From Bacillota bacterium (GTDB lineage: Bacteria > Bacillota > Desulfotomaculia > Desulfotomaculales > Nap2-2B): a stretch of 64,000 nt of DNA. Position 1 is the stretch's first letter, and every line of letters begins with the position of its first letter. The stretch lies in contig JBFMBG010000003.1 in NCBI GenBank assembly GCA_040755215.1, positions 19,126 to 83,125 on the forward strand, written 5' to 3'. A program made the position numbers and the translations under genes. The notes under the pieces are model-generated. The model was not told where the DNA came from and did not search any database. It was given only the letters and a program-made list of their open reading frames with translations. Below are positions 1,927-48,300 of the stretch, in pieces.

Positions 1927-2030
1927 CCCAAGCAGGGCGCATTTTTTTGCAAATCTTTTGTTCAGGTAGCGCGCTTAGTTTCTGTTGTGAGGGCTGGAAT
2001 TTGTCCGGGCGAACGACATATGCGCGGCGT

Positions 2031-2105
2031 AAGTTAAATGTCAGGCACTTAACTTAAGGCAGAAAACTCTCTTCAAAGAAGTTGCCCATGAAAACATTTG
2101 TTCCC
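2031..2105. repeat. Palindrome plus ~47-nt conserved module (copy 1 of 2 in the window)
   Basis: Near-perfect palindrome aagttaaatgtcaggcacttaactt (2031-2055). It is followed by gcagaaaactctcttcaaagaagttgcccatgaaaacatttgttccc, whose reverse complement aligns with 42327-42373. Confidence 0.5.
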
Positions 2106-2194
2106 GCAAGTAATAATGAAAATGAGACCTAAGGCAGGCATATTTTCCTTTGTGCCTGTTGCCTTTGTGCCTCTATTTTCAGAGGAGTGCGAGG

Positions 2195-7177: not shown

Positions 7178-7207
7178 GCGTAAGGTCCTCAAGAAAAGGT
7201 GCCAAAC

Positions 7208-10200: not shown

Positions 10201-10732
10201 CGGTTTTGATCTCTACTGCCGGATGCTTGCCGAAGCCGTCCAGGAAGCGAAAGGCGAGCCTGTTCAGCGGCCTCTGGAAACTACTGTGGAATTACCGGTG
10301 GAGGCTTATATTCCGGAGAGTTACATTCCCGATCCGAACCAGAAAGTAGATATTTACCGCCGGCTGGCGGCTGTCCGCAAGGAAGAGGAGGTTTCCGACC
10401 TGGAAGACGAGCTGGTTGACCGTTTTGGCGATTTGCCGGAACCCACCCGAAACTTGCTGACGGTTGCGCAATTAAGGGCGTTGGCCGGCCGCCTGGGCAT
10501 TAAAAATATCATCGGCCAGGACGGTGGTTACCGCCTGCAGTTTTATCCGGAACATCCTTTAAGCGGAGAAACTCTGGTAACGATCGGCAAAGAATATCAA
10601 AACCGGGTTAAATTCAGCAACTCCGACGGCTTTGAGATTCGCCTGCGCACGCGGGTCCCGCCATCTGAACCGGCAAATTACCTGGGCAACCTGAAGGAGT
10701 TTTTGGATCGCCTGAAGACGGGGGGTGATTAA
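7208..10732 (+). CDS. mfd: Transcription-repair coupling factor
   Basis: Trimmed to ATG 7208. CarD-like GDYVVHVNHGIGRY. Helicase motifs: LLCGDVGYGKTEIALRA, VVDEEQRFGV, LTLTATPIPRTL, QLRGRVGRS. TRG/C-terminal D7 region present. About 1170 aa. Confidence 0.95.
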   Translation: MKGLLHPLKETAEFQSLSRGLERQLREQMVFGLTGSQLSYVLSGLISSTVGPVLVVTPGDVESIGLIDELTVLLPDVKLYQFPTWQLLPGYVLARDQELPARRLKVLEALGRSEKNMVVVAPLEALLRRLPPPRVFFQATIALRVGEKIDLEQLKRRLLDYGYERVDLVELRGQFSSRGGIIDLFPVTFEQPVRIEFFDEEIDSIRFFDAESQRSEKKVNSVSFGPATELIVNDEARIRAREILEAEYSSQLKKISKIKPEEVKTRQVELAQGIISQLAEGRFSIEWEQYLPYFYSRQDTLLNYLPPESIVILNDSVRLKEVAESIRKEYEQVYMDLLAAGKILPGQFDAYVDWPRLSAGLANHRVIYVSLLPRQPKDRHPQNVVNFAARGMQTFLGRLDMLASEVRRYKKMGYAVVLLVNTEERARHLQEYLRDAQIDAFYLRSLTWEVRPGNVIVSLGRLSNGFELISGKLAVITENEIYGELLTPRRERYRKTKQPVPFADLKAGDYVVHVNHGIGRYQGVVSLTVGGVQKDYLLIQYAGEDKLYVPTDQIGLIQKYLGAEGVAPKLSRLGGNEWSRVKGRVKEAVREMADELLALYAARQKLPGHAFAADTVWQQEFEANFPYEETPDQLRAIEEVKADMERPRPMDRLLCGDVGYGKTEIALRAAFKAVVEGKQVAVLVPTTILAQQHFQTFRERFAGFPVTIEMLSRFRSPKEQRQIIAAIKEGKVDIVIGTHRLVQEDVTFKDLGLVVVDEEQRFGVAHKEKLKQLRQDVDVLTLTATPIPRTLHMSLIGVRDTSLLETPPENRFPVQTYVLEEDAVLIREAVRRELGRGGQVFFVYNRVVDLDRVAAWLQGLVPEARVAIAHGQMREDDLEQVMLDFIEGFYDILVCTTIIENGLDIPNVNTLIVKDAQNLGLAQLYQLRGRVGRSNRLAYAYFTFRRDQVLSELAEKRLAAIREFTEFGSGYKIAMRDLEIRGAGNLLGPEQHGHIAAVGFDLYCRMLAEAVQEAKGEPVQRPLETTVELPVEAYIPESYIPDPNQKVDIYRRLAAVRKEEEVSDLEDELVDRFGDLPEPTRNLLTVAQLRALAGRLGIKNIIGQDGGYRLQFYPEHPLSGETLVTIGKEYQNRVKFSNSDGFEIRLRTRVPPSEPANYLGNLKEFLDRLKTGGD

Positions 10733-10927
10733 TTTAAATTCATAGGAATTTTCTTTTTTCTGCCTTCCAGATATGGAATAAAATGAGTTACTCTCCATCA
10801 AGGCAGAATAAATAAAGGCACTGAGGCACAAAGGCACAGAGGCACTGAGGCTCAAAGAGAAACGGACCGGGAATATTAACTTTATGCCTTTGTGCCTGGG
10901 GAACTTTGTGCCTGATCTTTAAATTTA
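10733..10927 (-). repeat. ~190-bp structured intergenic repeat element, copy A (inverted relative to B and C)
   Basis: The reverse complement aligns end to end with 29454-29640 and 32293-32466. Shared blocks: gatcaggcacaaagtt(t/c)cccaggcac, atattcccgg, agtgcctttatttat, ttccatat(a/c)tggaagg, agaaaaaa(a)gaaaattc. It carries five tandem t-n-n-gtgcc units. Confidence 0.85.
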
Positions 10928-10930
10928 TAT

Positions 10931-11443
10931 TTATTTTTCATGGGGAGTAAATGTGTAGTTTATTTTTTGCGGGACATCCCTGAATTCGGGAAAAGCTCTT
11001 TCAAACTGAACTTCCATCCAGTTCCGCATCTTTTGATCGGAGTGTGTATAGGTTTCAATCAGGTACTGCACCATGCGGTAAAGCGCGGAAAGACTTAAGC
11101 TGTCCAAAGACTCTTTTAACTGGTTTTGCAGGTAAATGTCCCCTTCTTCCCGCGCCAGCCTGATGCATTGCTCAAGTATGGCCCGCCTGCCATGGCGGGC
11201 CATAAGCTTGAGCAGTTCTTCTTCCACTGGAATAAAAACAGGGGTGGCGCCGTGGCGCAACCACTCCTCCCGGATTCCCAGCTCCCGGCTGATGTTTTTC
11301 ACCAACTGGTCAGAGGGAATCTTTGCGCCCCGCTCGATGCCGTTTATATGCTGAGGGCGAATTCCTACTTTTTGGGCTAACTGCGTTTGGGTCAGGCCCA
11401 ATTCGCTACGGATTTGCCTTAGCCGCTCGCCAATTGTTGACAA
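10931..11443 (-). CDS. XRE-family (HTH_3) transcriptional regulator with an uncharacterised C-terminal domain
   Basis: TTG start with SD GAGGTG 7 nt upstream. N-terminal IGERLRQIRSELGLTQTQLAQKVGIRPQHINGIERG is a canonical cI/XRE helix-turn-helix. Confidence 0.7.
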   Translation of the reverse strand: MSTIGERLRQIRSELGLTQTQLAQKVGIRPQHINGIERGAKIPSDQLVKNISRELGIREEWLRHGATPVFIPVEEELLKLMARHGRRAILEQCIRLAREEGDIYLQNQLKESLDSLSLSALYRMVQYLIETYTHSDQKMRNWMEVQFERAFPEFRDVPQKINYTFTPHEK

Positions 11444-11750: not shown

Positions 11751-12016
11751 TACTATTAGGTAGCTAAGACTACTATAGCATAAGTTAAAAGGTCTGACAA
11801 TCATTAATTAATAGCGGGCACAAAGGTCCAGAAAGGGCACACAGGCAAAAAAGGACAAATCTAAATAACATAATGATTCACGTATTCTGCCTCCCCAATG
11901 AAGTACCTGACGCTGGAATAGTCTCCTTTGTTTGTCTGGTTTGTTCCTGTTTTTTTAAGTTGATGTGAATGTTAATCCGTTATATAATATGGGCATTGAT
12001 AGAGAGGGGGAGGATT

Positions 12017-17710: not shown

Positions 17711-17920
17711 ATTCAAGAGAAATTATTAAAATTTGAAAAAGGGTATTGAACGGGGATAATAATTATATGTAAAATCAAGAAAATTGTTTTTTTGTTATCT
17801 TTTCCCTGAAAAAATTAAAAGAAAGTATCGTTTAAAAGTTAAATTGGCTGTTGACAAAGAAAATAATTTTATTTAATGTTAATAATAATTATTAATTTAT
17901 TTTTGATTGGAGGTTGGCGT

Positions 17921-19759
17921 ATGCCCAAAGCTGTGGGAATTGATTTGGGCACCACCAATTCGGTGGTAGCTGTTATGGAAGGCGGTAAGCCGACAGTAAT
18001 CGTTAATGCGGAAGGGTCGCGGACAACCCCGTCTGTGGTGGCCTTTAAGGATACGGGTGAGCGGCTGGTGGGCCAGATCGCCAAAAGGCAAGCGGCTCTA
18101 AACCCCCAGAATACGCTTTATTCGGTGAAGCGTTTTATCGGCCGCCGGTATTCCGAAGTGGCCGACGAGCGCAAGCTCGTTCCCTACAAGGTGGTGGCCG
18201 GCCCCAACGACGCCGTGCGCTTCGACGTGCGGGACAAAAAGTATGCTCCCGAAGAAATTTCGGCCATGGTGTTGCGGAAGCTCGTGGACGACGCCTCCAA
18301 ATACCTCGGAGAGAAGGTGACCGACGCCGTAATTACCGTCCCGGCCTACTTTAACGACGCGCAGCGCCAGGCGACCAAGGACGCCGGAAAAATAGCCGGT
18401 TTGAACGTGTTGCGCATTATCAACGAACCGACCGCCGCCTCCTTAGCCTATGGTCTGGATAAAAAGGTCAACGAAACCATTTTAGTATTTGACCTGGGCG
18501 GGGGAACTTTCGACGTTTCCATTTTAGAAGTGGGCGACGGGGTCTTCGAAGTGAAGGCCACCAACGGCGACACCCACCTGGGCGGCGACAACTTCGATAA
18601 GGAAATAGTCGACTGGCTGGCCACGGAATTTAAAAAGGATTACGGGATTGACCTGCGCCAGGACAAACAGGCCTTGCAGCGCTTGCTCGAAGCCGCCGAA
18701 AAGGCGAAGGTGGAGCTCTCCACCACCCTGGAGACACAGATCAGCCTGCCCTTTATCACCGCCGACGCGAGCGGTCCCAAGCACCTGGACATGAAACTGA
18801 CCAGGGCCAAGTTTGAAGACCTGACCCACCACCTGGTGGAGCGCTGCCGGGGGCCGGTAAAGGCGGCCCTGGCCGATGCAAAGCTCACCGAAAAGGATAT
18901 CGACGAAGTCATCCTGGTGGGCGGCGCCACAAGGATGCCGGCAGTGCAGAGGCTGGTCAGGGAAATGCTCGGCAAGGAGCCCAACCAGGGAGTCAATCCC
19001 GACGAGGTGGTGGCCGTCGGGGCGGCGATTCAGGCCGGCGTGCTGGCCGGGGAGGTAAAGGACGTCGTTTTGCTGGACGTGACGCCGTTGTCCCTGGGGG
19101 TGGAAACTTTAGGAGGGGTGATGACGAAAATCATCGAGCGCAACACCACCATCCCGGTGCGGCGCAGCCAGATCTTTTCCACCGCCGAGGATAACCAGCC
19201 GGCAGTCGACATTCACGTACTGCAGGGCGAGCGGGAAATGGCCAGGGACAACCGTTCCCTGGGACAGTTTAAGCTGGACGGCATTCCCCTGGCGCCGCGC
19301 GGCGTGCCGCAGATTGAGGTAACTTTCGATATCGACGCCAACGGCATTTTAAAGGTTAGCGCCCGGGACAAAGCCACGGGCAAGGAGCAGACCATTACCA
19401 TCAGCGGCTCCACAAACCTGGACCAGGCCGAGATCGACCGCATGATCAGGGATGCCCGGGCGCACGCCGAAGAAGACAAGCGGCGCCGGCAGGAAGTGGA
19501 GGAACGGAACGAGGCGGACAGCCTCGCTTACCAGGTGGATCGCCAGCTCAAAGAACTGGGGGATCGCCTCCCCGTGCACGAAAAGGCGCGGATCGAACAG
19601 ATCCTGACCGACCTCCGCGCGGCGTTAAAAGAAAACGCCCCGGTGGAGCGCATCCGCACCCTGCGGAGCGACCTTCAGCAGGCCGCCTACTCGTTATCGG
19701 AGGCCGCTTACCGGCAGGTCCGGGAGAGCGGCCAGAGTTGCCCGCCCGGCGGCACCTGA
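17921..19759 (+). CDS. dnaK: Molecular chaperone DnaK (Hsp70). The ORF ends at an in-frame TGA 21 codons before the conserved tail.
   Basis: Trimmed to ATG 17921 (SD GGAGG 7 nt upstream). [28 protein letters not shown] and others. The canonical C-terminal ...GGDDVVDVEYEEK* is encoded in the same frame after the TGA (19760-19822). Confidence 0.95.
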
Positions 19760-19869
19760 GGGGGAGGTTCCCGGCGCCTGGGGGGCGACGATGTGGTGGA
19801 TGTGGAATACGAAGAAAAATAAATGATTTTCCCAAAAGCTGTGTTGGTATTACCGCTGGGGGGTAAAAA

Positions 19870-20358
19870 ATGGAACAAAATAAAACGGCAGACCCTAAGG
19901 GTGGCGACCCCGGTGAGGAAATAAAAATCCTGCGCCAGGAACTGGCGGACGAAAAAAACCGCCACCTGCGCACACTGGCCGACTTCGACAACTATCGCAG
20001 GCGAGTTGAACGCACTGCCCAAGAAATGAGTATGCAGGAAAAAAAGGCTCTGCTCCTGGATTTGCTGGCCTTGTTCGATGATTTTGAGCAGGCCAGAAAG
20101 CATATTAACGATGCGCAGACGGCGGAAGGGTTAAACCTCATTTACCGCCGGTTTCTTGAACTGCTGAAAAATCATGGGGTTACCCCCATCGAGTGCCTGG
20201 GGAGGCCCTTTGACCCCGCTGAGCAAGAAGGGGTGGCTTACGTAGAGACGGCGGACTGTCCGGAAGGGTGCGTCGCCGGGGAAATTTGCCGCGGATTCAA
20301 ATTTGGCGAAGAAATCCTCCGGCCAGCCAGAGTGCTGGTGGCCAGGCGGCCCGGCTAA
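19870..20358 (+). CDS. grpE: Nucleotide exchange factor GrpE
   Basis: RTLADFDNYRRRVERT, GVTPIECLGRPFDPAEQEGV, GFKFGEEILRPARVLV. 162 aa. Confidence 0.9.
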   Translation: MEQNKTADPKGGDPGEEIKILRQELADEKNRHLRTLADFDNYRRRVERTAQEMSMQEKKALLLDLLALFDDFEQARKHINDAQTAEGLNLIYRRFLELLKNHGVTPIECLGRPFDPAEQEGVAYVETADCPEGCVAGEICRGFKFGEEILRPARVLVARRPG

Positions 20359-20420
20359 TCATGATTTAGGGGGATTTTTACCTCAGGGGTAAAGCATATG
20401 TCAGTGGAGGAAACCAGTCA

Positions 20421-21428
20421 ATGGCCGTTTCTTACCAGGACTACTACGAGGTTTTAGGCGTCGGCCGGAACGCTACGGAAAAAGAAATCAAGGCCGCTTA
20501 CCGAAAGCTGGCCCGCAAGTGGCACCCCGATTTGCATACCGGCAAGCAGAAAAAGGAAGCGGAAGAAAAATTCAAGCAAATCAACGAAGCCTACGAGGTC
20601 TTGAGCGATCCCGATAAACGCGCCAAATACGACCGCCTGGGGAGCAACTGGCGGGCCGGGCAGGATTTTGAGCCGCCGCCCGACATGGAGGGCGTACATT
20701 TTTATACAACCGGCGATTTTGAACCGGGGTTTCGCAGCGGATTCAGCGACTTCTTCGAGATGCTTTTCGGAGGCACTCGCGCCGCCGGACGCTCTGCCGC
20801 GGCAGCCCGCGGGCCGATCCGCGGGCAGGATGTAGAGAGCGAAATTGAGCTTACCCTGGAAGAAGCTTACCGCGGAGCGACGAAAGCTCTGCAAGTATCG
20901 GGCGCAACGGTTTGTCCGGATTGCGGCGGCACCGGCGTAAGGGAGAGGCGTTTTTGTGCCCGGTGTGGCGGCACGGGTACGCTTCCGGATTTAAAAACCT
21001 TGGAGGTAAGGATTCCCGCCGGCGTCCGCGAGGGCAGCCGGATCCGGTTGAAAGGCCAGGGGGGCGAGGGTCTGACCGGAGGGTCGAGAGGGGACCTTTA
21101 CTTAAAGGTGCGCTTTCTCCCTCACCCCGTTTTTGCCGTGAAAGGTGACGACCTTGAAACGGAAGTCGTCTTAACCCCCGAGCAGGCTGTATTGGGTGAC
21201 AAGGTACCCGTGCCCACTCTGGATGGGCCGGTCACCGTCACCGTGCCGGCCGGCAGCCGGGCGGGGACGCGGCTGAGGTTGCGCGGTAAGGGGCTTCCCC
21301 TTAAAGGCGGCGGGCGCGGCGACCAGTACGTGCGCATTGTCATTGATCTTCCCGCCCTCTTAAGCGAGGAAGAAAAGCGGCTATACCAGCGACTAAGGGA
21401 GATCAGGGAAGGGGCAAGAGCCCGCTAG
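20421..21428 (+). CDS. dnaJ: DnaJ/CbpA-type J-domain co-chaperone with a reduced (single-centre) zinc finger
   Basis: J domain DYYEVLGV...[13 protein letters not shown] (HPD). G/F-like region. Only two CxxCxGxG motifs ([16 protein letters not shown]) rather than four. Two C-terminal beta-sandwich domains. 335 aa. Confidence 0.85.
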
Positions 21429-21516
21429 CGAGATACCAATTCGTTAATTGTCGGCCGGCAAACATCAGTTTAGATTGTTTCTGACGTCCGACAACCAACG
21501 TCTGAATTGAGGCAGG

Positions 21517-21804
21517 ATGACCATGACTTTGTTACGGATTTATTACCATGGCGGAGAACAGGAAAAACTGGATATCTGCGGCCTGGAATTTCATCCGGAA
21601 ATGCTCGAGATTTTGCACGAACTGGGCATCATCGAGATCCGGGAAGGTTGCCTCGGTCCGGAGCAGTTACGCCGGATCTACAAACTCCTGCGCTTGAAAA
21701 ACTCCCTGGGGGTGAACCTTTCCGGCGCAGCCGTTATTTTAGAACTTCTCGACCGCATTGAAGAGCTTCAAGAAGAAATTGAAAAACTGCGAAGAGCAAG
21801 GTGA
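21517..21804 (+). CDS. CbpM-like chaperone-modulator (MerR_2-type small protein)
   Basis: 95 aa. ...[12 protein letters not shown]...[45 protein letters not shown] parallels E. coli CbpM (...IVGLGVVEP...[43 protein letters not shown]). Lies directly after the J-protein, as in cbpA-cbpM. Confidence 0.55.
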
Positions 21805-21809
21805 GGCAA

Positions 21810-24419
21810 ATGGATATCAACCGTTTTACGCAAAAATCACGGGAAGCCCTGGCGGCGGCGCAGGCTCTGGCAGCGGAAAAAAATCACCAGGAAATTACGG
21901 GTAAGCACCTGCTGGCCGCCCTTTTAAGGCAGGAAGGGAGTCTGGCGCCGCGCTTCCTTGCCCAGGCGGGAGCCGATCCGGCCGTCCTTGAGCAGGGGCT
22001 GGAAAACCTGCTGCGAAAAATACCTGCGGTATTCGGTGCGGCAGCCTCGCTGGCCGTCGGCGCGGGCCTGGCGCGGGTGCTTGCCCGGGCGGAAAAGGAA
22101 GCCCAGGCGTTAAAAGACGACTACGTCAGCGTTGAGCACATTTTGCTTGCCATGGTCGACGACGGAGAAGAAGATTTGAAAGATCTTTTCCGGCAGGCGG
22201 GGGTGGACAGGAATTCCCTGTTGACGGCGCTGCGTGCGGTGCGAGGCGCCCAGCGCGTTACCAGCGACAACCCCGAAGCTACTTACGAGGCGCTGGAGCG
22301 CTACGGCCGGGACCTGACCAGGCTGGCCGGTGAAGGTAAGCTGGATCCGGTCATTGGCCGGGACGACGAAATCCGGCGGGTGATGGAAATACTTTCCCGG
22401 CGCACCAAGAATAACCCCGTGCTGATCGGCGAGCCGGGAGTGGGCAAGACGGCAATCGTCGAAGGGCTGGCCAGGCGAATCGTCGCCCGCGATGTTCCGG
22501 AAGGACTGAAAGAGAAGCGGGTGATCGCCCTGGACATGGGGGCGCTGGTGGCCGGGGCCAAGTACCGGGGTGAATTTGAGGAGCGCCTCAAGGCAGTATT
22601 GAAAGAAGTGCAGGAATCCGCCGGGAAAATCATTCTTTTCATTGACGAGTTGCACACCGTGGTGGGGGCCGGCGCCGCTGAAGGAGCTATGGACGCCAGC
22701 AACCTCTTAAAGCCGATGCTGGCCCGTGGTGAACTGCGCGCCATCGGCGCCACCACCATTGAGGAGTACCGGAAGCACGTCGAAAAAGACGCCGCCCTGG
22801 AGAGGCGCTTCCAACCGGTGATGGTTAACCCTCCGTCGGTGGAAGACACCATCTCCATTTTGCGGGGGCTAAAGGAGCGCTACGAAGTGCATCACGGGGT
22901 GCGCATCCAGGACGCCGCCCTGGTAGCCGCGGCCGTTTTGTCCGACCGGTACATCACCGACCGCTTTTTGCCGGATAAGGCCATCGATTTAATGGACGAA
23001 GCGGCGGCGCGCCTGCGCACGGAAATTGACAGTATGCCGACCGCCCTGGACGAAATTACCCGGCGCATCATGCAGCTGGAAATAGAGGAGGCCGCTTTAA
23101 AAAAAGAGCGAGACCAGGCTTCGCAGGAGAGACTGCAGAAGATCCAGAAAGAACTTGCCGACCTGCGCCTTGATGCCGATGCCATGAAGACCCAGTGGCA
23201 GGCGGAAAAGCAGGCCATCTCCCGGGTGCGGGCGATCAAGCGGGAGATTGAAGAAGTGCGCACGGAAATCGAAAAGGCCGAAAGGGAGTACGACTTAAAC
23301 CGGATGGCCGAACTGAAATACGGGCGCTTGAATGAACTGGAGAGGAGGCTCAGGGCGGAAGAAGAACTCCTGGCCGGTAAACAGAAACACAACATGCTCC
23401 TCAAGGAAGAGGTCGACGAAGAGGACATCGCCAGGGTGGTCAGCCGGTGGACGGGCATCCCGGTAAGCAAGTTGATGGAAGGGGAAAAGGAAAAGCTCAT
23501 CCGCCTGGAAGAACTGCTCCACGAGCGGGTAATCGGCCAGGACGAGGCGGTGCGTGCCGTTGCCGATGCAGTGCTGCGGGCCCGCAGCGGAATCAAGGAC
23601 CCCCACCGGCCGGTAGGCAGCTTCATTTTCCTGGGGCCGACCGGCGTAGGCAAAACCGAACTCTCCAGGGCGCTGGCCGAGGCCCTTTTCGACGACGAGC
23701 GCAACATGATTCGCCTGGACATGTCGGAGTACATGGAAAAGCACACGGTGGCCAGGTTAATCGGGGCGCCCCCCGGCTACGTAGGCTACGAGGAGGGCGG
23801 TCAGCTTACCGAGGCCGTGCGCAGGAAGCCCTACAGCGTGGTTCTTTTTGACGAGATTGAAAAAGCCCACGCCGACGTTTTCAACGCCCTGCTGCAGATC
23901 CTCGACGACGGGCGGCTGACCGACGGCAAGGGCCGCACGGTCAACTTTAAAAACACCATCATCATTATGACTTCCAACATCGGGAGCCAGGAAATCCTGA
24001 ACTTCCAGGAAAAGGGCGGCGATTACGAAAGGATGAAAGAGGGCGTGCTGGCTTTCTTAAAGCAGCATTTCCGCCCTGAGTTTTTAAACCGGGTAGACGA
24101 AATAATTGTCTTCCACGCTTTGGACCGCGAGCAGGTCCGGCAAATTACCGTTCTTTTGCTGAAGCGGCTGGCGGCCAGACTGGCGCAGACCATCGGTTGC
24201 ACCCTGAAGTGGGACGACACCGCCGTGACTTACCTGGCGAACAAAGGCTACGATCCGGCTTTCGGGGCCAGACCGTTGAAAAGGACCATCCAGCAGGAAG
24301 TGGAAACGCCCCTTTCCCGCCAGATCGTCAGCGGTGCAGTGAAGCCGAAAGACGTCATTACTTTAAAAGGGGGTGAGGGAAGGATTTCTTTCGAGGTGAA
24401 ACCGGCTTCCGGGGACTAA
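21810..24419 (+). CDS. clpB: ATP-dependent disaggregase ClpB
   Basis: Trimmed to ATG 21810. Clp_N repeats, two AAA+ modules ([15 protein letters not shown] and [15 protein letters not shown]), a long coiled-coil M-domain, and sensor GARPLKR. Confidence 0.95.
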
Positions 24420-24492
24420 CGGGCCGGCGGAAGACGGCAAACACCGAAAAAATTGGCTGGAGAGCATTAAAAAATTTAAGGAGGAATCAAGT

Positions 24493-24669
24493 ATGTCGTG
24501 GAAATGTTCCAATTGCGGTTACACCATCAATGAGGAGACCTATCCCGAGCGTTGTCCTTCGTGCAAAGAGGCCTGCGCCTTTCTGAACGTTACCTGCTAC
24601 ATACCCGACTGCGGCGGGCCGCGCCCGGATCTGATCGATGACCGCATCAGCAAAAAGGAAAAGGAATAG
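24493..24669 (+). CDS. Small Cys-rich zinc-ribbon/rubredoxin-like protein (58 aa, below the ORF-track cutoff)
   Basis: Strong SD AAGGAGG 8 nt before the ATG. MSWKCSNCGYTINEETYPERCPSCKEACAF...: two CxxC pairs, as in rubredoxin or the rubrerythrin C-terminal ribbon. Confidence 0.5.
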   Translation: MSWKCSNCGYTINEETYPERCPSCKEACAFLNVTCYIPDCGGPRPDLIDDRISKKEKE

Positions 24670-24803
24670 TGGTAGTTAACAGTTTAACCGAAGTAAGCCG
24701 GGAAGCAGTTTTTTTCCAGGTTCAACGATTCCATCTAATTTCTATTCCTGGCCAGTTGCTGATTCCCAATCCTAAGCTCTTTTTTAAAAGGAGGGCGACT
24801 TGA

Positions 24804-25265
24804 ATGGCCATTGAAAAATACAGGGGAGGCTGGCTTAGTCCCTGGAATCCTTTCCGGGAACTAGAAGAAATCAGGCAGCGGATGGAGGACTGGTTTAAGC
24901 CTGTTTTTTGGCGGACCGCTCCTGTTGAAGGAGCTGTCTGGGCGCCTCCCATTGAGATGTACGAAGAAAAGGACCGTTACGTGGTCAAGGCGGAGATTCC
25001 CGGGATGAAAAAGGACGAGATCGAGGTTTCTATCACGGACAACGTTTTAACCATCAAAGGCGAGCGGAAAGCCGAAGGGGAGAAAAAAGAGAGCAGCTAC
25101 TACTGCTGCGAGCGCTACTACGGCAGCTTTCTGCGGGCGCTCAACCTGCCGGGAAACGTCGACGTCAAAAAGATCTCCGCCGGCTACAAAGACGGCGTCC
25201 TGGAAATAAGCCTGCCCAAGACGGAAGAAGAAAAAGAGAAAAAGATCGAGGTCAAAATTGAATAA
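24804..25265 (+). CDS. Hsp20/alpha-crystallin small heat-shock protein
   Basis: SD AGGAGGG. Alpha-crystallin domain: PPIEMYEEKDRYVVKAEIPGMKKDEIEVSI...FLRALNLPGNVDVKKISAGYKDGVLEISLPK. Confidence 0.9.
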   Translation: MAIEKYRGGWLSPWNPFRELEEIRQRMEDWFKPVFWRTAPVEGAVWAPPIEMYEEKDRYVVKAEIPGMKKDEIEVSITDNVLTIKGERKAEGEKKESSYYCCERYYGSFLRALNLPGNVDVKKISAGYKDGVLEISLPKTEEEKEKKIEVKIE

Positions 25266-25348
25266 CAGGAAAAGGCTGCTTCCCGGCTTTTTGCTTTTTT
25301 GAGTACTGCCCTGGAAAGGAAAACAAAACAAACGGAGGTTGCCGTGCA

Positions 25349-25546
25349 ATGCCTAAAAAACCTTATATTGAATCCGCCGAATGCATGGCCTGCGGCAGCT
25401 GCGCGGACTTGTGCCCGGGCGTTTTCCAACTCGACGAGGACCTTGGTTACGCGGTGGTGATTGATCCGCAGGGCGCTTCCGAGGACGAGATCCAGGAAGC
25501 CATCGATTCCTGTCCGGCTGCCTGCATTCACTGGGAAGAGGAATAG
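25349..25546 (+). CDS. Small [4Fe-4S]/[3Fe-4S] ferredoxin
   Basis: 65 aa. [12 protein letters not shown] ... CPAACI cluster motif. Confidence 0.8.
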
Positions 25547-25575
25547 TCATTAAAAATAAAAAAAGGAGGGTTTTT

Positions 25576-26148
25576 ATGGGTTTAAAAGGTACGCGCACCG
25601 AGCGCAACCTGTTGACTGCCTTTGCGGGCGAGTCGCAGGCCAGAAACCGCTACACCTATTTTGCCAGCCGGGCGAAAGCGGAGGGCTACGAGCAGATCGC
25701 GGCGGTTTTTCTGGAAACAGCGGACAACGAAAAGGAGCACGCGAAGCGGATCTTTAAATTCTTCGAAGGCGGCGAAGCGGAAGTTACCGCCTCGTTCCCT
25801 GCGGGGGTAATCGGTGATACGCTGGCCAACCTGAAAAGCGCTGCAGCCGGGGAAAATTACGAACATACGACGATGTACCCGGAGTTTGCGAAAGTGGCCG
25901 AAGAGGAAGGGTTTCCCGAAATCGCGGCGGTCTTGCGGGCCATTGCCAGGGCCGAGGTGGGGCACGAGGAGCGGTACCGCAAACTCATCGCCAATATCGA
26001 GCAGGGAAAGGTTTTCCAGCGGGACCAGAAAGTGACCTGGAAGTGCCGGAACTGCGGGTACATGCACGAAGGGACGAAACCGCCGGAAACCTGTCCGTCG
26101 TGCGACCATCCGAAGAGTTACTTTGAGCTCTTCTGTGAAAATTATTAG
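25576..26148 (+). CDS. rbr: Rubrerythrin
   Basis: [38 protein letters not shown] di-iron helices, plus C-terminal rubredoxin CRNCGY...CPSCDHP. Confidence 0.92.
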
Positions 26149-28528: not shown

Positions 28529-29407
28529 TTGCGCGTGGCGGTAATCGATATTGGTACCAACTCCACACGCCTTTTAATTGCCGACGTGGGAAATGGAAGG
28601 TTAAGGGTACTTCATACCGGCCTGGTTACAACCAGGCTCGGGGAGGGTATTGAGGGAGGATACTTGCTCAGGCGGGCCATTGAACGGACGGTGACTGTGC
28701 TCAAAAAATACCTGCAGGTTGGGCAATCGTGGCAGGTAAAAAAGACGATAGCCGTGGCCACCAGTGCCGTACGCTGCGCTCTTAACAGGGAGAGTTTTTT
28801 AAGGATGGTTTTTGAGCAGACGGGTTTGCAAGTGAGGGTTCTTTCCGGGGAGGAAGAGGCACACTACGCATACCTGGGGGTAGTTAGCGGCTTGCCTGTT
28901 AATCCCGAAGAAGTGCTGGTTATGGACGTCGGCGGGGGAAGCACTGAATTTACCTGGCGCAAGGACGGCCGGCTTTATTTGCGGAGTGTTGACGTAGGGG
29001 CGGTACGCGCGACGGAAGGATCCTATACCGGGGAGCGCATCCGCCGGTTATTAGAGCCGGTTCTGAAAGAAATAAAGGAAATCCCGCCGGGTACCCTGGC
29101 TGGCGTCGGAGGGACCGTAACTACCCTGGCCGCCATGGCGATGGGCCTGCGGGTTTACGATCCCGTCCTGGTGCATGGTTATGTTTTAAAGTGCGAACAG
29201 ATTGCCGATCTTTTTACTCTGTTAGTGCGCACTCCGCTGGAAAGGCGCCGCCTGTTGCCCGGCCTCCAACCGGAACGCGCCGATATCATTATCGCCGGAG
29301 TCTGGATTGTTCTTACCGTAATGAATGGTTTAGGGTTGGCTTCGCTGCTGGTAAGCGAAGCGGACATGATGCACGGACTCGCCTTAAATTGTCGAAATAA
29401 AAAATAG
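28529..29407 (+). CDS. Ppx/GppA-family phosphatase (short, two-domain form)
   Basis: VAVIDIGTNSTRLLIADV, ATSAVRCALN, DVGGGSTEF: ASKHA-fold motifs of exopolyphosphatase/GppA. 292 aa. Confidence 0.8.
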   Translation: MRVAVIDIGTNSTRLLIADVGNGRLRVLHTGLVTTRLGEGIEGGYLLRRAIERTVTVLKKYLQVGQSWQVKKTIAVATSAVRCALNRESFLRMVFEQTGLQVRVLSGEEEAHYAYLGVVSGLPVNPEEVLVMDVGGGSTEFTWRKDGRLYLRSVDVGAVRATEGSYTGERIRRLLEPVLKEIKEIPPGTLAGVGGTVTTLAAMAMGLRVYDPVLVHGYVLKCEQIADLFTLLVRTPLERRRLLPGLQPERADIIIAGVWIVLTVMNGLGLASLLVSEADMMHGLALNCRNKK

Positions 29408-29453
29408 TTAATATTACCAGACATGACAATTATTGCTTGCCCCTTGTACTATA

Positions 29454-29640
29454 ATTTAAATTAATGATCAGGCACAAAGTTTCCCAGGCACAAAGGCATA
29501 AAGTCTATATTCCCGGTACATTTCTCTTTGTGCCTCTGTGTCTTAGTGCCTTTATTTATTCCGCTTCGTGGAGAGTAGCTCCTTTTTATTCCATATATGG
29601 AAGGCAGAAAAAAAGAAAATTCCTATGGAATTAAATTTTA
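29454..29640 (+). repeat. ~190-bp structured intergenic repeat element, copy B (abuts the spoIIE start)
   Basis: Aligns with copy C and with the reverse complement of copy A. Contains inverted GGCACAAAG/CTTTGTGCC arms around atattcccgg, a 14-bp palindrome ttccatatatggaa, and attccata...tatggaat arms. Confidence 0.85.
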
Positions 29641-29647
29641 ATGAGGG

Positions 29648-32215
29648 GTGGGTAAGCAATTGTCGGATAAAATTGAAGTTTATCCCTTCCGGCGACTGAA
29701 GAAAGAGACGAAGAAAGAAACGGCTTTCAAGAGGAAAAGGGAAAAGGCGGGAAGCGCGTCCGGAAAACGGGGCAGAAAGGCGAAAGGAGAGCAAAAAGCA
29801 GAAGGATTACCGGTTTTATCAACTGGCTCGCGAAAAAAAGAATTTGAAAATAGGGAAAAGGCGAAATCATTCCGGCTGTTTTCCGCAATTGGAAAACAAC
29901 TGTTTTTGTGCGGGGCAGGTTTTTTCCTGGGCAAGGCGGTTTTGCTGGACGAGCTGGCGCCTTTTGCTCCTGCCTTCACAGCCGCGGCTGCGTGGGTTTT
30001 TCCGGCCCAGGCGGTGCCCGCGGCATTGGCGGTTATTGCCGGAATCGTAACGCATGGGAAAAGCGTCCTGATTAACACCATCACCGTTCTCTTGGTTTTG
30101 CCCCTGCTCCTTGGCTTATCCAAAGATATTAAAAAACCCTGGTTGTTACTCCCTGGTCTTGTGTTTACGGTCACCCTCGTCACGAAAGCCGGCTTTCTTG
30201 CTTTTTCCAGCGCGTTGCCGTACGATTACATCGCTGTTCTCTTTGAGGCGATTTTTGCCGGAACGTGCACGCTGATTTTTTCTTATGCCCTCCCCTCGTT
30301 ACGGAAATTCGATGGCGTTCAAAATTTAAATGCCGAAGAACTTTTTTGTGTGTTTATTCTTTGCACTGCCGTTGTGGCCGGCACCGGTAGTTTAAGTGTC
30401 TGGGAGATTACTCTCCAGGGTTTTTTATCCCGTTTGATTATTCTCACCGCCGCTTTAATCGGCGGAATGGGTCAGGGGGCTGCCGCCGGTGCGCTCCTGG
30501 GAATCATTCCTGGTCTGGCTTACACGGGCGTGCCCGTGATGATGGGAGCCTATTCTTTTGCCGGCCTGCTGGCAGGAGCCGGCCGGGCTTTGGGAAAAGC
30601 GGGGGTGGCCATGGGCTTTTTACTGGGCAATATTATCCTTTCTATTTACCTCCAAAATTTTGGGCATTTAGTTGCCGTATTGTCCGAAACGGGCCTGGCT
30701 ATGCTGTTCTTTTTTGCTATCCCGGCAGCGTATACGGAAAAGATCAGCGCTTCGCTAGCGGTCTTGAGCGTTATGCCTGGGGACAACAAGAAAATTCAAG
30801 CGGCCGTAACGGGGCGGATGCGGAAATGGTCGCATATTTTTAGAGAATTAGCGCATAGCTATGCGGCAGCTGCCTCTCCATCCCCGAATTATCGGGAAGA
30901 ACCGGCACTGCAGAGCTTATTTAACGAAATTAGCAATAAAGTGTGCAGCGGCTGCGGTCTTTTCCGGACCTGCTGGGAGCGGGAGTTTTACCGCACCTAC
31001 CAGAGTTTTTTGGGCATGTTCACGTATGTGGAGATTTACGGCCAGGTTACCGCTGAAGATTTGCCGGAAGTTTTAAAGCGGCGGTGCACCAGGGGAAAAG
31101 AGCTCGCCATCACCATTACCTGTTTATACGATACCTACAAGTTAAACCGTTACTGGGCGAGAAGGTTTCTGGAAAGCAAAGAAATCCTTTCCGAGCAGTT
31201 AAAAAGCGTCTCGGAAGTTATTGAAGACTTAAGCCAACAGTTGCCGCTCGAGTTGGAAGCCTCTGCCCAGAAAGAAATTTTTCTTAAAGAAAAGTTGAAG
31301 CAAGCCGGCGTGCCGGCCGTAGAGGTGAAAATTTATCCCCAGGAAAACGGCAAAAAAGAAATTTTTTTAAAGAGGCAGCCTTGCGCCGACCAGCGGGACT
31401 GTTATGCATCCCTGGTTCCGGTAATCTCCCAGCTGATGGAAGAACCGCTGGCGTTGCCGAATCAAAATTGTACCGGTGTTAAAGAGGGGCTGTGTCACCT
31501 TCGCCTTTACCCGGAGCTCAAATACCAGGTAAAAATTGGGGTGGCTAAAATTGGCAAGGGTGGAAGCTCCGTTTCCGGGGACAGCCACACTTTTGTCTCT
31601 TTAAGGGGAGGCAAATTTGCTTTTATCCTTAGCGATGGCATGGGGACGGGCCCGCCGGCGGCACTGCAAAGCGGTACCACTGTTTCGCTTTTGGAGCATC
31701 TTTTGGAGTCGGGCTTAAACACAGGACTGGCGATTAAAACTGTCAATTCCCTGATGATGTCGCGCTCCGGGGGGGACAACTTTGCCACGATAGATATGGT
31801 CATGCTGGACTTGTATAGTGGACAAGCCGAATTTATCAAGATTGGCGCCCCTCCCGGTCTGATCGCCCGCGGCCGGCGGGTCAGCCAGGTCAAAGCGGCC
31901 TCCTTGCCGGCAGGCATCATAAAAGATATAGACGTTACCAGTGTGGCCAAAAGTTTAGCGAAAGGGGATTTGCTGGTCATCTTTAGCGACGGTTTATTGG
32001 ATACTTATAAAGGCCCCAGGGAAAAAGAAGAATGGGCGAAAGAAGTTCTCCAGGATGCTTCCGGACTGGATCCCCAGGAAATCGCCGACTTGTTTTTAAA
32101 GCTGGCCCAGGCGAACGCCGGCGGGGAGGCGCACATTGCCGACGATATCACCATAATCGTAGCGAGAATTCAAGAAAGAAGAAACTGGGAACATAGGAAA
32201 GAACTGTCGGGCTGA
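29648..32215 (+). CDS. spoIIE: Stage II sporulation protein E (PP2C serine phosphatase)
   Basis: About 10 TM segments, then a regulatory region and a PP2C domain (VSGDSHTF...FILSDGMGTG...ATIDMVMLDL...LVIFSDGL...DDITIIVARI). The start may be TTG 29660, which has better SD spacing. Lys/Arg-rich N-terminal tail. Confidence 0.92.
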   Translation: MGKQLSDKIEVYPFRRLKKETKKETAFKRKREKAGSASGKRGRKAKGEQKAEGLPVLSTGSRKKEFENREKAKSFRLFSAIGKQLFLCGAGFFLGKAVLLDELAPFAPAFTAAAAWVFPAQAVPAALAVIAGIVTHGKSVLINTITVLLVLPLLLGLSKDIKKPWLLLPGLVFTVTLVTKAGFLAFSSALPYDYIAVLFEAIFAGTCTLIFSYALPSLRKFDGVQNLNAEELFCVFILCTAVVAGTGSLSVWEITLQGFLSRLIILTAALIGGMGQGAAAGALLGIIPGLAYTGVPVMMGAYSFAGLLAGAGRALGKAGVAMGFLLGNIILSIYLQNFGHLVAVLSETGLAMLFFFAIPAAYTEKISASLAVLSVMPGDNKKIQAAVTGRMRKWSHIFRELAHSYAAAASPSPNYREEPALQSLFNEISNKVCSGCGLFRTCWEREFYRTYQSFLGMFTYVEIYGQVTAEDLPEVLKRRCTRGKELAITITCLYDTYKLNRYWARRFLESKEILSEQLKSVSEVIEDLSQQLPLELEASAQKEIFLKEKLKQAGVPAVEVKIYPQENGKKEIFLKRQPCADQRDCYASLVPVISQLMEEPLALPNQNCTGVKEGLCHLRLYPELKYQVKIGVAKIGKGGSSVSGDSHTFVSLRGGKFAFILSDGMGTGPPAALQSGTTVSLLEHLLESGLNTGLAIKTVNSLMMSRSGGDNFATIDMVMLDLYSGQAEFIKIGAPPGLIARGRRVSQVKAASLPAGIIKDIDVTSVAKSLAKGDLLVIFSDGLLDTYKGPREKEEWAKEVLQDASGLDPQEIADLFLKLAQANAGGEAHIADDITIIVARIQERRNWEHRKELSG

Positions 32216-32267
32216 AAGGGATTGGGGGGATAACCCACCTTTGTTCTTAAAAGCAGGGGATGTTTTT

Positions 32268-32295
32268 ACCTCCGGTTTAATTCCGGAGGTTTTTA
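32268..32295 (+). terminator. Rho-independent terminator after spoIIE
   Basis: acctccgg-tttaatt-ccggaggt followed by tttt. Confidence 0.75.
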
Positions 32296-32466
32296 AATTA
32301 AAGATCAGGCACAAAGTTTCCCAGGCACTAAGGCACAAAGTTAATATTCCCGGGGCATTTCTCTTTGTGCCTTAGTGCCTTTATTTACTCCGCTCCGTGG
32401 AGAAGTAGCTCTGTTTATTCCATATCTGGAAGGTAGAAAAAAAGAAAATTCGTATGGAATTAGATT
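32293..32466 (+). repeat. ~190-bp structured intergenic repeat element, copy C
   Basis: Same orientation as copy B. Contains a perfect 18-bp inverted repeat: aggcactaaggcacaaag (32323-32340) and ctttgtgccttagtgcct (32363-32380), with a 22-nt loop. Confidence 0.85.
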
Positions 32467-32558
32467 GAGATGTTTTAAGAAGTTTTAATGATGAAGGAAA
32501 ATTATTGCCAGCATGGAAATATAAATATCGGGAGTTTGCAAGTGCAGGTGTTTGTCTG

Positions 32559-33965
32559 GTGAATTTACTTGAACAGGTTTTTTTCCTGATCAGAAAGCAC
32601 TGCCTGATCGCGGAAGAAGAAAAGATTTTGGTCGGCGTTTCCGGGGGCCCCGATTCCATCGCTCTTTTGCATATCTTATGGATGTTGCGGGACGAGTTAA
32701 AAATTTTTTTGCACGTGGCCCACTTGAATCACCAGTTAAGGGGGGAGGAGGCGCGGGCGGACGCGCTGTTTGTCCAGGATTTTGCCGAAAAACTAAACCT
32801 GCCGTATACTATTGAAAGTTTTGATGTCCGGACTCTGCAAAAGGAAACCGGCCTTTCTCTTCAGGAGGCGGCGCGGGAAGCGCGCTTTGCTTTTTTTGAG
32901 CGGGAAGTCCGGCGCCTGAAGGCCGATAAAGTGGCCCTGGGGCACCACGCGGACGATCAGGCGGAGACAATTTTGTTCAATTTGCTCCGGGGTACCGGGG
33001 TGAAGGGATTGGGGGGCATCCCCCCTTTACGCGGCATTTATATCCGCCCTCTTTTAGAGGTACGCCGCCAGGAAATCGAGGCGTACTGCCGGGTTCACGC
33101 GCTGCCTTTCCGCCTGGATCCTTCCAATTTAAAGCCGGTTTATACCCGCAACCGGATCAGACTGCAATTACTGCCCTTGCTGGAACATGAATATAACCCG
33201 CAGTTGGCCAGGGTGCTGGTTCGTCTGGGGAATATTTGCCGGGAAGAGAACGCCTACCTGGAACTGCTGGCGCGAGAAGCTTACCAGAGAGTAGTGGAAA
33301 AAGAAAAAGAAGGCGAACTGGTTTTGAACCGGGCCTCTCTGGTCGCGCAACCACTTCCTTTAAGGCGGCGGATTTTCCGGCTGGCCTGGCAACGGGTCAG
33401 CGGGGAAACGAAAGAGCTTGCCTACGAGCACGTGGAGCGCTTACTGGAAATGTTGGCAAATGGCGCGCGGGCCCTGGCTCTTCCGGGCGGCGTCAGGGCG
33501 GTGAAGACGAAAAATACTTTTCGGTTGTTCAGGAACGATCAGCTCCAAAGGATCCCCCCCTATCAATATCCCCTGGTAATTCCGGGAATAACTTTTATTC
33601 CCGAGCTCGATCTGGAAATTCAGGCGGAAATTTTGCCGGTTGAAAAGGCCCCCCCCTGGAAAGATCTGACCCTCCGGGAAGCTATCCTGGATTACGGTTT
33701 GGTTAAGGAACCTTTGCGGGTGCGCCGGCGAAAGGAGGGGGATGTTTTTGCTCCGCTGGGCCTGGGCGGAACGGTTAAGCTAAAAAAGTTTCTGATTGAC
33801 CAGAAAATCCCCAGGTCCGAACGCGATCGCCTCCCGCTGGTGGTCAGCGGGGAGGAAATCATGTGGGTGGGCGGTTTAAGAATGGCGGAACACTGGAAAG
33901 TAACCGAAAAAACGAAGGTGTGTTTATTTTTACAGATAAAGGAACATAATTCTAATTCTTATTAA
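32559..33965 (+). CDS. tilS: tRNA(Ile)-lysidine synthetase
   Basis: Trimmed to GTG 32559 (SD AGGTG 8 nt upstream). PP-loop VGVSGGPDSIALLH, HLNHQLRGEEA, GHHADDQAET, C-terminal TilS domain (RRRKEGDVF...KLKKFLID). Confidence 0.9.
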   Translation: MNLLEQVFFLIRKHCLIAEEEKILVGVSGGPDSIALLHILWMLRDELKIFLHVAHLNHQLRGEEARADALFVQDFAEKLNLPYTIESFDVRTLQKETGLSLQEAAREARFAFFEREVRRLKADKVALGHHADDQAETILFNLLRGTGVKGLGGIPPLRGIYIRPLLEVRRQEIEAYCRVHALPFRLDPSNLKPVYTRNRIRLQLLPLLEHEYNPQLARVLVRLGNICREENAYLELLAREAYQRVVEKEKEGELVLNRASLVAQPLPLRRRIFRLAWQRVSGETKELAYEHVERLLEMLANGARALALPGGVRAVKTKNTFRLFRNDQLQRIPPYQYPLVIPGITFIPELDLEIQAEILPVEKAPPWKDLTLREAILDYGLVKEPLRVRRRKEGDVFAPLGLGGTVKLKKFLIDQKIPRSERDRLPLVVSGEEIMWVGGLRMAEHWKVTEKTKVCLFLQIKEHNSNSY

Positions 33966-35888: not shown

Positions 35889-35969
35889 ATCGGTCGTCGG
35901 TCGTCGGAAGTCAGACGTCGGAGATGAAAACTTGAGAGGAGTGATTGGCCGGAGGGTTCCGGCAAAGCA

Positions 35970-36445: not shown

Positions 36446-36592
36446 AGATCCGATCTTCCTGGAAAATATCAGGCCAAGGTTTTCCAGGCACAAAAGCGCA
36501 AACCCTCGTTTTTCTATTTCCTTCAGCAGGAATTTACCCAACAAAGAAAGAAGATAATAAAAAGATATACCTTTCGAGTGAGGGGTATTTTT

Positions 36593-45079: not shown

Positions 45080-45371
45080 TGGAGCAGCCTCCTGTTCGCA
45101 ATTTTTCCCTTGGTGAGATCGCCGCAAAGACGCAAGAACGAAAAGAATTAAGAAATAAATAAAGGCCCGGCGTTTATTTATTAGCTTGAGCGCCGGTCCT
45201 AAAGAACATACATAAAGAAAAACATTTTACCGCTTCCCTTTTAACTTTTTAATGTTCCGTCCACCAAAGGACTTTTCTGCTCGTTAGCCTAAAGACAATG
45301 TTCAATTCCAGGATAACATTTTCCCCTGTGCCTTTGGGCTTGTATACTTTGTGCCTCGATACCTATTTACC

Positions 45372-48093: not shown

Positions 48094-48300
48094 TTTCGTT
48101 TCCTTGCTTGTCTTTTTGCCGGCCTTGCTTACCTTACCGTCTAAAAGGACTGTTCCTTTGATCGATTGGGATCGTTCCGCTGCGTAGTTGCGGGGTCTTT
48201 TTATTCTGACTTTACGCCTTTGTGCCTTTTAAAACTTTGCTGCCTGAGTATTAAGTTCTCCCTGAATCAGCCGGGCTCCTTCTTTTTGGGCCTGACCTTT

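Follow-up and report, generated by a model that had tools for sequence, protein, structure and literature searches.

In a 64-kb stretch of Bacillota DNA (53% GC; referred to here as the window, to which all copy counts refer), the sporulation gene spoIIE stands between two direct copies of a structured repeat. This raises the question of what the repeat is and what it does at a key sporulation gene. An earlier note on the sequence had offered a non-autonomous mobile repeat, a structured RNA or protein-binding module, and a substrate for recombination that deletes spoIIE. We conclude that the repeat is probably a small, non-autonomous, AT-rich mobile element of uncultured Desulfotomaculales-like Bacillota, with the behavior of a MITE (miniature inverted-repeat transposable element) and a foldback-like structure. 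It has recently dispersed to three sites as a discrete unit of 161 to 185 nucleotides (nt), and a close relative lacks it at the orthologous sites. The coordinates of all features are collected in Table 1.

Three full copies of one element

BLASTN within the window aligned the copy upstream of spoIIE (copy B) with the copy downstream of it (copy C) at 87% identity over 184 nt in identical orientation (E = 1e-59; 91.9% identity over ungapped columns). A repeat finder resolved the similarity, which extends over 29455-29637 and 32292-32466, into three collinear blocks of 89 to 91% identity. B and C are therefore one element in a shared orientation, as the earlier note had held. The shared runs that it quoted are present (the 26-nt run GATCAGGCACAAAGTTTCCCAGGCAC, which is the longest exact match, and ATATTCCCGG and AGAAAAAAAGAAAATTC), as are the palindrome TTCCATAT(A/C)TGGAA, the arms ATTCCATA / TATGGAAT and the AT-rich ends. 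An inverted-repeat search also recovered the perfect 18-bp stem of copy C (32323-32340 with 32363-32380) and its 22-nt loop. The count of two copies proved too low: B and C are real, and the window also holds a third full copy, A, on the minus strand, together with partial copies. The three full copies stand in unrelated contexts and are 89 to 92% identical in pairwise comparisons over ungapped columns, and the motif GGCACWAAG occurs 18 times in the window versus 1.2 times expected.

The ends of the element were set with the empty allele described below as the anchor. This moved them from 29454-29640 and 32293-32466, as first proposed, to 29463-29631 and 32300-32460. The termini so defined are TAAAGATCAGG...CCTATGAATT for A, AATGATCAGG...CCTATGGAAT for B and AAAGATCAGG...CGTATGGAAT for C. 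The placement of C right after the spoIIE terminator was accurate, since a stem (32268-32290) and a T run lie there. The GC content of the element is 39 to 41%, versus 53% for the window.

The element is absent from the orthologous sites of a close relative

Searches with Mfd and SpoIIE identified a Bacillota metagenome-assembled genome (MAG), GCA_040755975.1 (MAG124), with a contig that is 96 to 97% identical at the nucleotide level to positions 1 to 35 kb of the window. MAG124 lacks all three copies at the orthologous sites (loci L127 and L130). We also compared a second genome of the window's own species (L124; 99.67% identical) and more distant relatives at site B (L114, L115 and L126) and site A (L128 and L129).

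Site A is the clearest case. Copy A fills the gap between two convergent genes, mfd (7199-10732) and a gene for an XRE-type helix-turn-helix (HTH) protein (10931-11443, minus strand). The stop codons of these genes are 7 nt apart in MAG124 versus 198 nt in the window. The MAG124 allele reads GGGGGGTAGTTAATTTATATTTATTTTTCATG and has a single copy of the hexamer TAAATT, in GGGGGGTAGTTAATTTATATTTATT. The window allele reads ...TGATTAATTTA, then the element, AATTCATAGG...CCTGATCTTTA, and then AATTTATATTTATT.... The filled allele equals the empty allele plus a 185-nt element and a second TAAATT, so that site A is a clean empty site. Right beside the insertion site, the final sense codon of mfd is GAT in the window (10727-10732) and AGT in MAG124 (L127 13520-13525), and the TAA stop codon of mfd is 1 nt from the flanking hexamer.

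At site B, MAG124 reads TATAATT-TAAATT-A-GTTATTTATCCC-TAAATT-TTAATGAGGGG, and 168 nt in the window replace its 12-mer (L130 2961-2972). At site C, MAG124 has 48 unrelated nt (L130 5632-5679) after TAAATTAA, where the window has 167 nt. Site B is also empty in L114, L115 and L126, and site A is empty in L128; L124 has both B and C. Each copy adjoins TAAATT, which after insertion stands on both sides of the element (as TAGATT on the right of C), with flanks of the three copies that read TAAATT(W)(W). The MAG124 12-mer (L130 2954-2985 region) resembles CTTTATTTATTCC, the junction of the element's two modules, a likeness that could reflect chance, a footprint or formation of the composite at this site.

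Turnover among the relatives runs in both directions. L129, whose Mfd is 86% identical, has a hairpin-only relative of the element at site A, in the orientation of copy A and with an 11-unit arm. Conversely, in MAG124 a hairpin-bearing insertion of ~500 nt stands at window position 1240/1243, where the window has none. Of an old foldback between an HTH_35 gene and prsA, only one arm is left in the window; the foldback is complete in L128 (6940-7020) and L129 (4960-5075) and expanded in MAG124 (L127 14415-14565). In addition, the two ends of a short-read contig that carries this spoIIE fall inside B and C, as expected of a multicopy repeat; such repeats break short-read assemblies of the lineage.

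The element is a mosaic of a foldback and a 3' module

Inspection of the three copies revealed that the element is a mosaic of two parts, a foldback and a 3' module of ~90 nt. Tandem octamers form the arms of the foldback, with GGCACAAA in one arm and TTTGTGCC in the opposite one. That the stem is built from such units follows from the copies themselves, whose main difference is how many 8-nt units the 3' arm holds: A has five, B three and C two, against 11 in the L129 relative. The outer arm unit is separated from the inner units by a spacer of 6 to 7 nt, and the arms flank a conserved loop of ~22 nt with the consensus GTWAATATTCCCGGTNCATTTCT, which is also found in copies of other Bacillota MAGs. 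The 3' module holds two small palindromes. Hairpins of -29 to -35 kcal/mol are predicted, followed by UUUAUUUAUU, and folds of the whole element have z-scores of -2.6 to -4.4, both strands folding equally well.

The two parts have different distributions. The left part (AAAGATCAGG and then the foldback) recurs alone at many loci of the Bacillota MAGs CTOTU1360, MAG124 and MAG242, where the related foldbacks have the left end AAAGATCAGGCACAAAG and the loop of the window element; at some loci a second structured insert lies inside the foldback loop. The 3' module was matched by nhmmer only in the three window copies, in L113 (the same locus) and in L046 and L048 of CTOTU1360.

Coding capacity was considered and rejected. 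A 56-codon open reading frame (ORF) occurs only in B; A and C have AAG at the position of its ATG, and the frame is broken by indels of 8 nt. Because indels of 8 and 24 nt distinguish the copies, no ORF is conserved among them, in agreement with the earlier note.

A mobile element as the probable explanation

The proposal of a non-autonomous element related to MITEs or to repetitive extragenic palindromic (REP) sequences is upheld in the main. The repeat is dispersed, noncoding, AT-rich, absent from a genome that is 96 to 97% identical and flanked by a short direct repeat. Strict membership among the MITEs is not supported by the test for terminal inverted repeats: the first 30 nt and the reverse complement of the last 30 nt gave local scores of 3 to 6, no better than those from shuffling (4.0 to 4.6).

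Several further observations, like the negative result for terminal repeats, weigh against a mobile element. No transposase, integrase or Y1/REP-associated transposase was found among the ~40 window proteins scanned, which have housekeeping or sporulation functions. Clustering of the ORFs near octamer arrays in 119 loci revealed no recurrent gene, the neighbors being only sulfatases, glycosyltransferases and other housekeeping genes. Only site A has a clean empty allele. The empty allele of site B already has two TAAATT hexamers around its 12-mer, and that of site C consists of 48 unrelated nt, with TAGATT as the right hexamer in the window, so that extra deletions or replacements must be assumed at both sites. 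Finally, the copies differ by 8 to 11%, while the host differs from its element-free relative by only 3 to 4%, and several diverged source copies are therefore needed.

The TAAATT pattern may arise equally well through a 6- to 8-bp target duplication, with a transposase supplied in trans, or through recombination that uses TAAATT as its core, and the mobilizing enzyme would be encoded elsewhere in the genome. The subterminal hairpin raised the possibility of IS200/IS605-like or rolling-circle mobilization, which we did not adopt because the left hairpin has no sequence relationship to the right one and the element does have a flanking repeat. On balance, the element is probably selfish DNA that is tolerated at its sites, with possible side effects on neighboring genes, including spoIIE.

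Small intergenic mobile repeats are a well-known kind of element (PMC10969869, PMC3184786, PMC2817692). Prokaryotic MITEs such as Correia/NEMIS of Neisseria and ERIC of enterobacteria are, like the window element, shorter than 500 bp, noncoding and AT-rich (PMC10969869). Both occupy AT-rich intergenic sites, including 5' leaders and gene ends, have a short flanking direct repeat, vary in their copies between close relatives and would form stable stem-loops when transcribed. A further prokaryotic example is bcr1 of the Bacillus cereus group. Unlike MITEs, the window element has no detectable terminal inverted repeats and no identified partner insertion sequence, has the one hexamer TAAATT at all three copies and has a core foldback of variable-number tandem octamers.

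That core is reminiscent of the Drosophila foldback elements FB and Galileo, in which arms of short tandem repeats vary in length from copy to copy and from one side to the other and surround a variable middle (PMC3573991). These elements are, however, eukaryotic, kilobase sized and associated with a transposase (PMC3573991), whereas the arms in the window are 16 to 40 nt long. Moreover, the arms of a foldback transposon are its termini, which is not so at site A, where the inserted unit runs ~95 nt past the right arm. REP sequences, their bacterial interspersed mosaic elements (BIMEs) and REPINs, with their REP-associated tyrosine transposases (RAYTs), share with the window element extragenic palindromes at gene ends, mosaic modules and hairpins on both strands (PMC2817692, PMC3116915). 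REPs differ in being palindromes of 20 to 40 nt with hundreds of copies tied to a RAYT, and the window unit is 161 to 185 nt long, with an octamer stem and no GTAG head. The pneumococcal elements cited in PMC10969869 are similarly modular, with a variable number of boxB units (BOX) or a terminator-like hairpin (SPRITE), and often adjoin or nest in one another; their sequences are unrelated to the element, and the BOX subrepeat is ~45 nt long, compared with 8 nt here.

Searches for the family elsewhere gave little. BLASTN of copy C found no match in 72,556 plasmid and 50,697 phage records. In viral contigs the left-end pattern had 0 matches and (GGCACAAA)3 only 2. A tRNA and tmRNA scan returned nothing for the element, and the literature searched on octamer or heptamer strings and on MITEs in Desulfotomaculum or near spoIIE held nothing relevant. 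In the searched literature, in Rfam and among the plasmid and phage records the family has no description, although the kind of element is well known. Small mobile repeats of uncultured Bacillota have hardly been described, and the architecture found here is unusual in that the foldback arms are tandem octamers, terminal inverted repeats are lacking and the flanking hexamer is fixed.

Copy B lies in the predicted 5' leader of spoIIE

The gene order yabP-yabQ-(sigma-70 region-4/GerE-type HTH)-divIC-S1-ppx/gppA-spoIIE-tilS-ftsH is kept in relatives, and the protein has homologues named SpoIIE in Desulfotomaculales, Desulfofundulus and Pelotomaculum. For spoIIE the longest ORF begins at GTG 29648, but the orthologues and an 851-amino-acid (aa) database protein (P0001) favor the TTG at 29660. 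The earlier statement that B ends 7 nt before the spoIIE start is therefore true of the GTG; from the likely start codon the distance is 28 nt, and B ends 11 nt before the Shine-Dalgarno sequence.

Upstream of spoIIE, the blocks TGTCGAA, GTTACCA, (A/T)TGACAAT and TATAATT are invariant or nearly so in seven genomes whose SpoIIE proteins are 63 to 100% identical. TGTCGAA (29390-29396) agrees with the consensus of the 0A box. In the Spo0A-dependent spoIIE promoter of B. subtilis, a 0A box precedes -35 and -10 elements with a 21-nt spacer, and by resemblance to this layout the conserved blocks are read as a Spo0A-type promoter. A sigma-70 promoter scan inside the element matched solely the upstream spoIIE promoter region, and inspection of the 3' module by eye revealed no good sporulation-sigma promoter.

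The interval between the -10 box and the Shine-Dalgarno sequence is 10 to 35 nt in relatives and contains the element in the window. Between the window and MAG124, the main difference in the leader ahead of the Shine-Dalgarno sequence is the element; with copy B, the predicted spoIIE leader grows from ~35 to ~190 nt. Since B lies between the conserved promoter and the Shine-Dalgarno sequence, it is expected to be transcribed as part of the 5' leader. Of the suggested contribution of B to promoter or leader function, the part concerning the leader stands, and B, being downstream of the promoter, is no part of the latter.

Copy B landed between the -10 box and the Shine-Dalgarno sequence and would be transcribed with spoIIE, and its stable hairpin, with a U-rich tract after it, could attenuate, process or stabilize the spoIIE mRNA. 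The hairpins of A and C, directly after gene ends, could act as terminators or 3' stabilizers. The insertion puts ~170 structured nt between a conserved, putatively Spo0A-type promoter and the spoIIE ribosome-binding site, and with the element-free relative for comparison it amounts to a natural experiment on the effect of an insertion at a key sporulation gene. In L125, whose SpoIIE is 78% identical, an unrelated GC-rich insertion of ~110 nt is found at the same place in the spoIIE leader (995-1110); the L125 contig starts and ends inside octamer foldbacks.

Table 1. Coordinates of the element copies, their parts and flanks, partial copies and spoIIE features in the window
Feature	Position	Strand	Remarks
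Element copy A	10737-10921	-	185 nt, five 3'-arm units; fills gap between convergent mfd and XRE-type HTH gene
Flanking repeat of A, AATTTA (TAAATT on element strand)	10731-10736		Adjoins mfd stop codon
Second flanking repeat of A, AATTTA	10922-10927		From filled versus empty allele
Element copy B	29463-29631	+	169 nt, 39% GC, inside spoIIE 5' leader; from three-copy alignment
Left hexamer of B, TAAATT	29457-29462		Read from sequence
Right hexamer of B, TAAATT	29632-29637		Read from sequence
Foldback of B	29470-29551	+	Inverted repeat; predicted hairpin energy -28.9 kcal/mol
Left arm of B, GGCACAAAG-type units	29470-29503
Loop of B, TCTATATTCCCGGTACATTTCT	29504-29525
Right arm of B, CTTTGTGCC-type units	29526-29551
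3' module of B	29552-29631	+	Palindrome TTCCATATATGGAA; arms ATTCCATA / TATGGAAT
Element copy C	32300-32460	+	161 nt; between spoIIE terminator and conserved tilS upstream region
Left hexamer of C, TAAATT	32294-32299		Read from sequence
Right hexamer of C, TAGATT (5/6 bases as in TAAATT)	32461-32466		Read from sequence
Stem of C, perfect 18 bp, with 22-nt loop	32323-32380	+	100% complementary; predicted -33.9 kcal/mol
Partial copy, left arm only	48208-48257	-	BLASTN 82% over 50 nt, E = 2e-6
Partial degenerate left-arm copy	36464-36502	+	Between ndk and thioesterase gene
Partial copy or remnant	45327-45356
Left-arm remnant of old foldback (hit ~11817)	11810-11850	+	Orthologous site complete in L128 and L129
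Arm of decayed foldback	2142-2178	-	Adjoins LexA-box-like module
spoIIE promoter region	29390-29455	+	TGTCGAA 29390-29396, ATGACA 29423-29428, 21-nt spacer, TATAAT 29450-29455
spoIIE Shine-Dalgarno GAGGGGTGGG and likely start TTG	29643-29652; 29660-29662	+	Conserved in orthologous loci
spoIIE coding sequence	29660-32215	+	851 aa; Pfam SpoIIE_N and SpoIIE
spoIIE intrinsic terminator, ACCTCCGG...CCGGAGGT then TTTTT	32268-32295	+	Kept in MAG124

A possible cis-acting RNA or terminator

The strongest competitor of a selfish mobile element, although we consider it unlikely, is that the element is mainly a functional cis-acting RNA or terminator recruited by the host, comparable to pneumococcal SPRITE or REP. 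The upstream transcript would be terminated or stabilized by it, and expression of spoIIE attenuated or timed by the copy in the leader. The locations of the copies favor this, as all three lie directly downstream of a gene end in a shared orientation (the XRE-type gene for A, ppx for B and spoIIE for C). However, MAG124 dispenses with the element at each of the three sites, with just 7 nt between its mfd and XRE-type genes, and spoIIE has a canonical terminator of its own.

The predicted stable hairpins, the UUUAUUUAUU tail and the low z-scores reported above also suit an RNA or terminator, but both strands fold equally well, loops of at least 22 nt are unusual for intrinsic terminators, and a consensus terminator scan does not call the hairpins or the element despite its stem and tail. 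Across phyla, the arrays are laid out so that either strand gives a hairpin with a U-rich arm after it; among the loci listed, at least 35 pairs of arrays lie within 400 nt in this arrangement and none in the opposite one. Against this, solo arrays have no strand bias relative to genes. The predicted fold of the full leader has the Shine-Dalgarno sequence paired to GCUCCUU in the 3' module, a pairing that loses weight because the Shine-Dalgarno sequence is predicted to be paired in the element-free leader too.

The earlier suggestion of a conserved structured RNA fared badly in two direct comparisons. Rfam 15 returned no match at the gathering score in the window and none at E <= 1 in 29300-32600. 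In 37 foldbacks, variant units in one arm were matched in the other at 3/46 positions, the level obtained with shuffled partners (6%; p = 0.43), and a matched A/T variant between the arms was found in copy C only. The arms can pair because both use the same unit, not through compensatory evolution. The lack of compensatory stem changes, which the earlier note had listed among refuting outcomes, counts against a structured RNA and leaves the mobile-element reading untouched.

A possible binding site for a protein that recognizes octamers

Another alternative takes the octamers, rather than the stem, as the functional part. We scanned a collection of 185,579 species genomes with the pattern GGCACAAAG-N(5-9)-GGCACWAAGGCA, which also matches pure octamer arrays. 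This revealed at least 112 loci, often several per genome (a raw count). The loci listed include Opitutales, Cytophagales, Nitrospirota, Planctomycetota, Desulfobacterota, Calditrichia, Spirochaetes, Armatimonadota, Bacillota and others, and at many of them the octamer forms a pure tandem array, with as many as 15 units. A metagenome scan for arrays gave 7 loci only, every one of another array type.

Among the loci listed, a GGCACNRA array is followed by its complement array within 400 nt in at least 35 cases, and the opposite arrangement never occurs at less than 1195 nt. The Cytophagales copies read AGGCACAAAG-TTCCAA-AGGCACAAAG...loop...CTTTGTGCC-TCTGGAA-CTTTGTGCC; the window arm, AGGCACAAAG-TTTCCC-AGGCAC, has nearly the same layout, and the loops are lineage specific. 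The arrays in the listed loci are mostly intergenic, have no strand bias with respect to genes and show a mild excess between convergent genes. In loci L001-L123, 766/1271 Tandem Repeats Finder calls have a period of 7 to 9 nt; within 8 kb of the GGCACAAA arrays, AATTAGG arrays occur in 21 of these loci and TAACTGA in 6.

These arrays might be sites for a conserved DNA-binding protein that coats tandem 8-bp units, the element being a dispersed operator or nucleoid site. Such a protein could resemble the ribbon-helix-helix repressors and the plasmid centromere-binding proteins that act on tandem 7- to 8-bp units, and it could also be the missing transposase. We regard this as somewhat less probable still than a recruited RNA. 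An octamer and arm layout common to Desulfotomaculales, Cytophagales, Nitrospirota and other phyla with loops that differ by lineage, the strict relative orientation of paired arrays and the lack of strand bias relative to transcription all point in this direction, and a variable number of units with unmatched variants fits recognition of the units, not of the stem. On the other hand, no candidate protein was found near the arrays in the 119 loci, the 3' module and the TAAATT flanks are left unexplained, pure arrays, which reach 15 units, also resemble ordinary slippage-prone simple repeats, and the octamer counts are raw counts rather than a measure of enrichment.

Long simple sequence repeats with 5- to 11-nt units are treated in MacGregor 2015 (PMC4679880), which cites Mrazek 2007. 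TAACTGA repeats are common to Beggiatoaceae, Cyanobacteria and Bacteroidetes, with no mechanism described (PMC4679880). They resemble the GGCACAAA arrays as intergenic 7- to 8-nt units that occur across distant phyla without a known transfer mechanism (PMC4679880), and the fact that such units are already known, likewise without an identified binding protein (PMC4679880), detracts from the argument for one here. Unlike TAACTGA repeats, the GGCACAAA arrays form oriented inverted pairs, are not found just upstream of start codons and have no strand bias. We found no published description of the GGCACAAA unit in the literature searched. The octamer arms are a second, equally unexplained case of a short tandem unit across phyla, and they provide a probe sequence for a protein that may be behind it.

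In a bolder version, to which we give about the same low credence, the GGCACAAA foldback would be the local form of a cross-phylum system in which a widespread protein or transposase recognizes the outer unit, the spacer and the inner units. Such a system would account for arms that are common to Bacillota, Bacteroidota, Nitrospirota, Verrucomicrobiota and others while the loops are not, and for arrays that always face each other. If it is true, one copy in this genome would have been co-opted in the spoIIE leader and would modulate sporulation entry there. Both a recruited RNA and a protein-binding site are compatible with mobility.

The last alternative, that B and C are a recombination substrate that deletes spoIIE to give asporogenous variants, is very improbable: as direct repeats they lie 2837 nt apart and match at 92% of ungapped columns, but no sign of such a deletion was found, their longest uninterrupted identity is 26 nt, both readable genomes of the species (the window and L124) have an intact spoIIE and both copies, and copy A and the copies in other genomes are unrelated to spoIIE.

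Other repeats and differences between the genomes

An 8.2-kb block of the window (17826-26021; dnaK, grpE, dnaJ, clpB, hsp20, ferredoxin and rubrerythrin) has no counterpart in the MAG124 contig, which has only a 38-aa C-terminal fragment of rubrerythrin between spoIID and yabP.

A second repeat family is present at window positions 1949-2171 (minus strand) and consists of a foldback arm, ATTTTCAT, a LexA-box-like GAAC-N4-GTTC and CGCATATGTCGYTCGCCCGGACAAATKCCAGCCCTCA. It was also found in L127 (3290-3789), L017, L005 and L007, and had no Rfam match at E <= 1. In MAG124, this repeat is the ~500-nt insertion at window position 1240/1243, which has long inverted repeats.

Other short tandem units behave similarly. 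A (TCGGTCG)n tract follows the ftsH stop codon (window 35890-35907). A foldback of the (GTCGTCAG)n type lies between spoIIE and tilS in L116 (6640-6730), and in L046 (490-610) another such foldback occupies part of an octamer foldback, within its loop.

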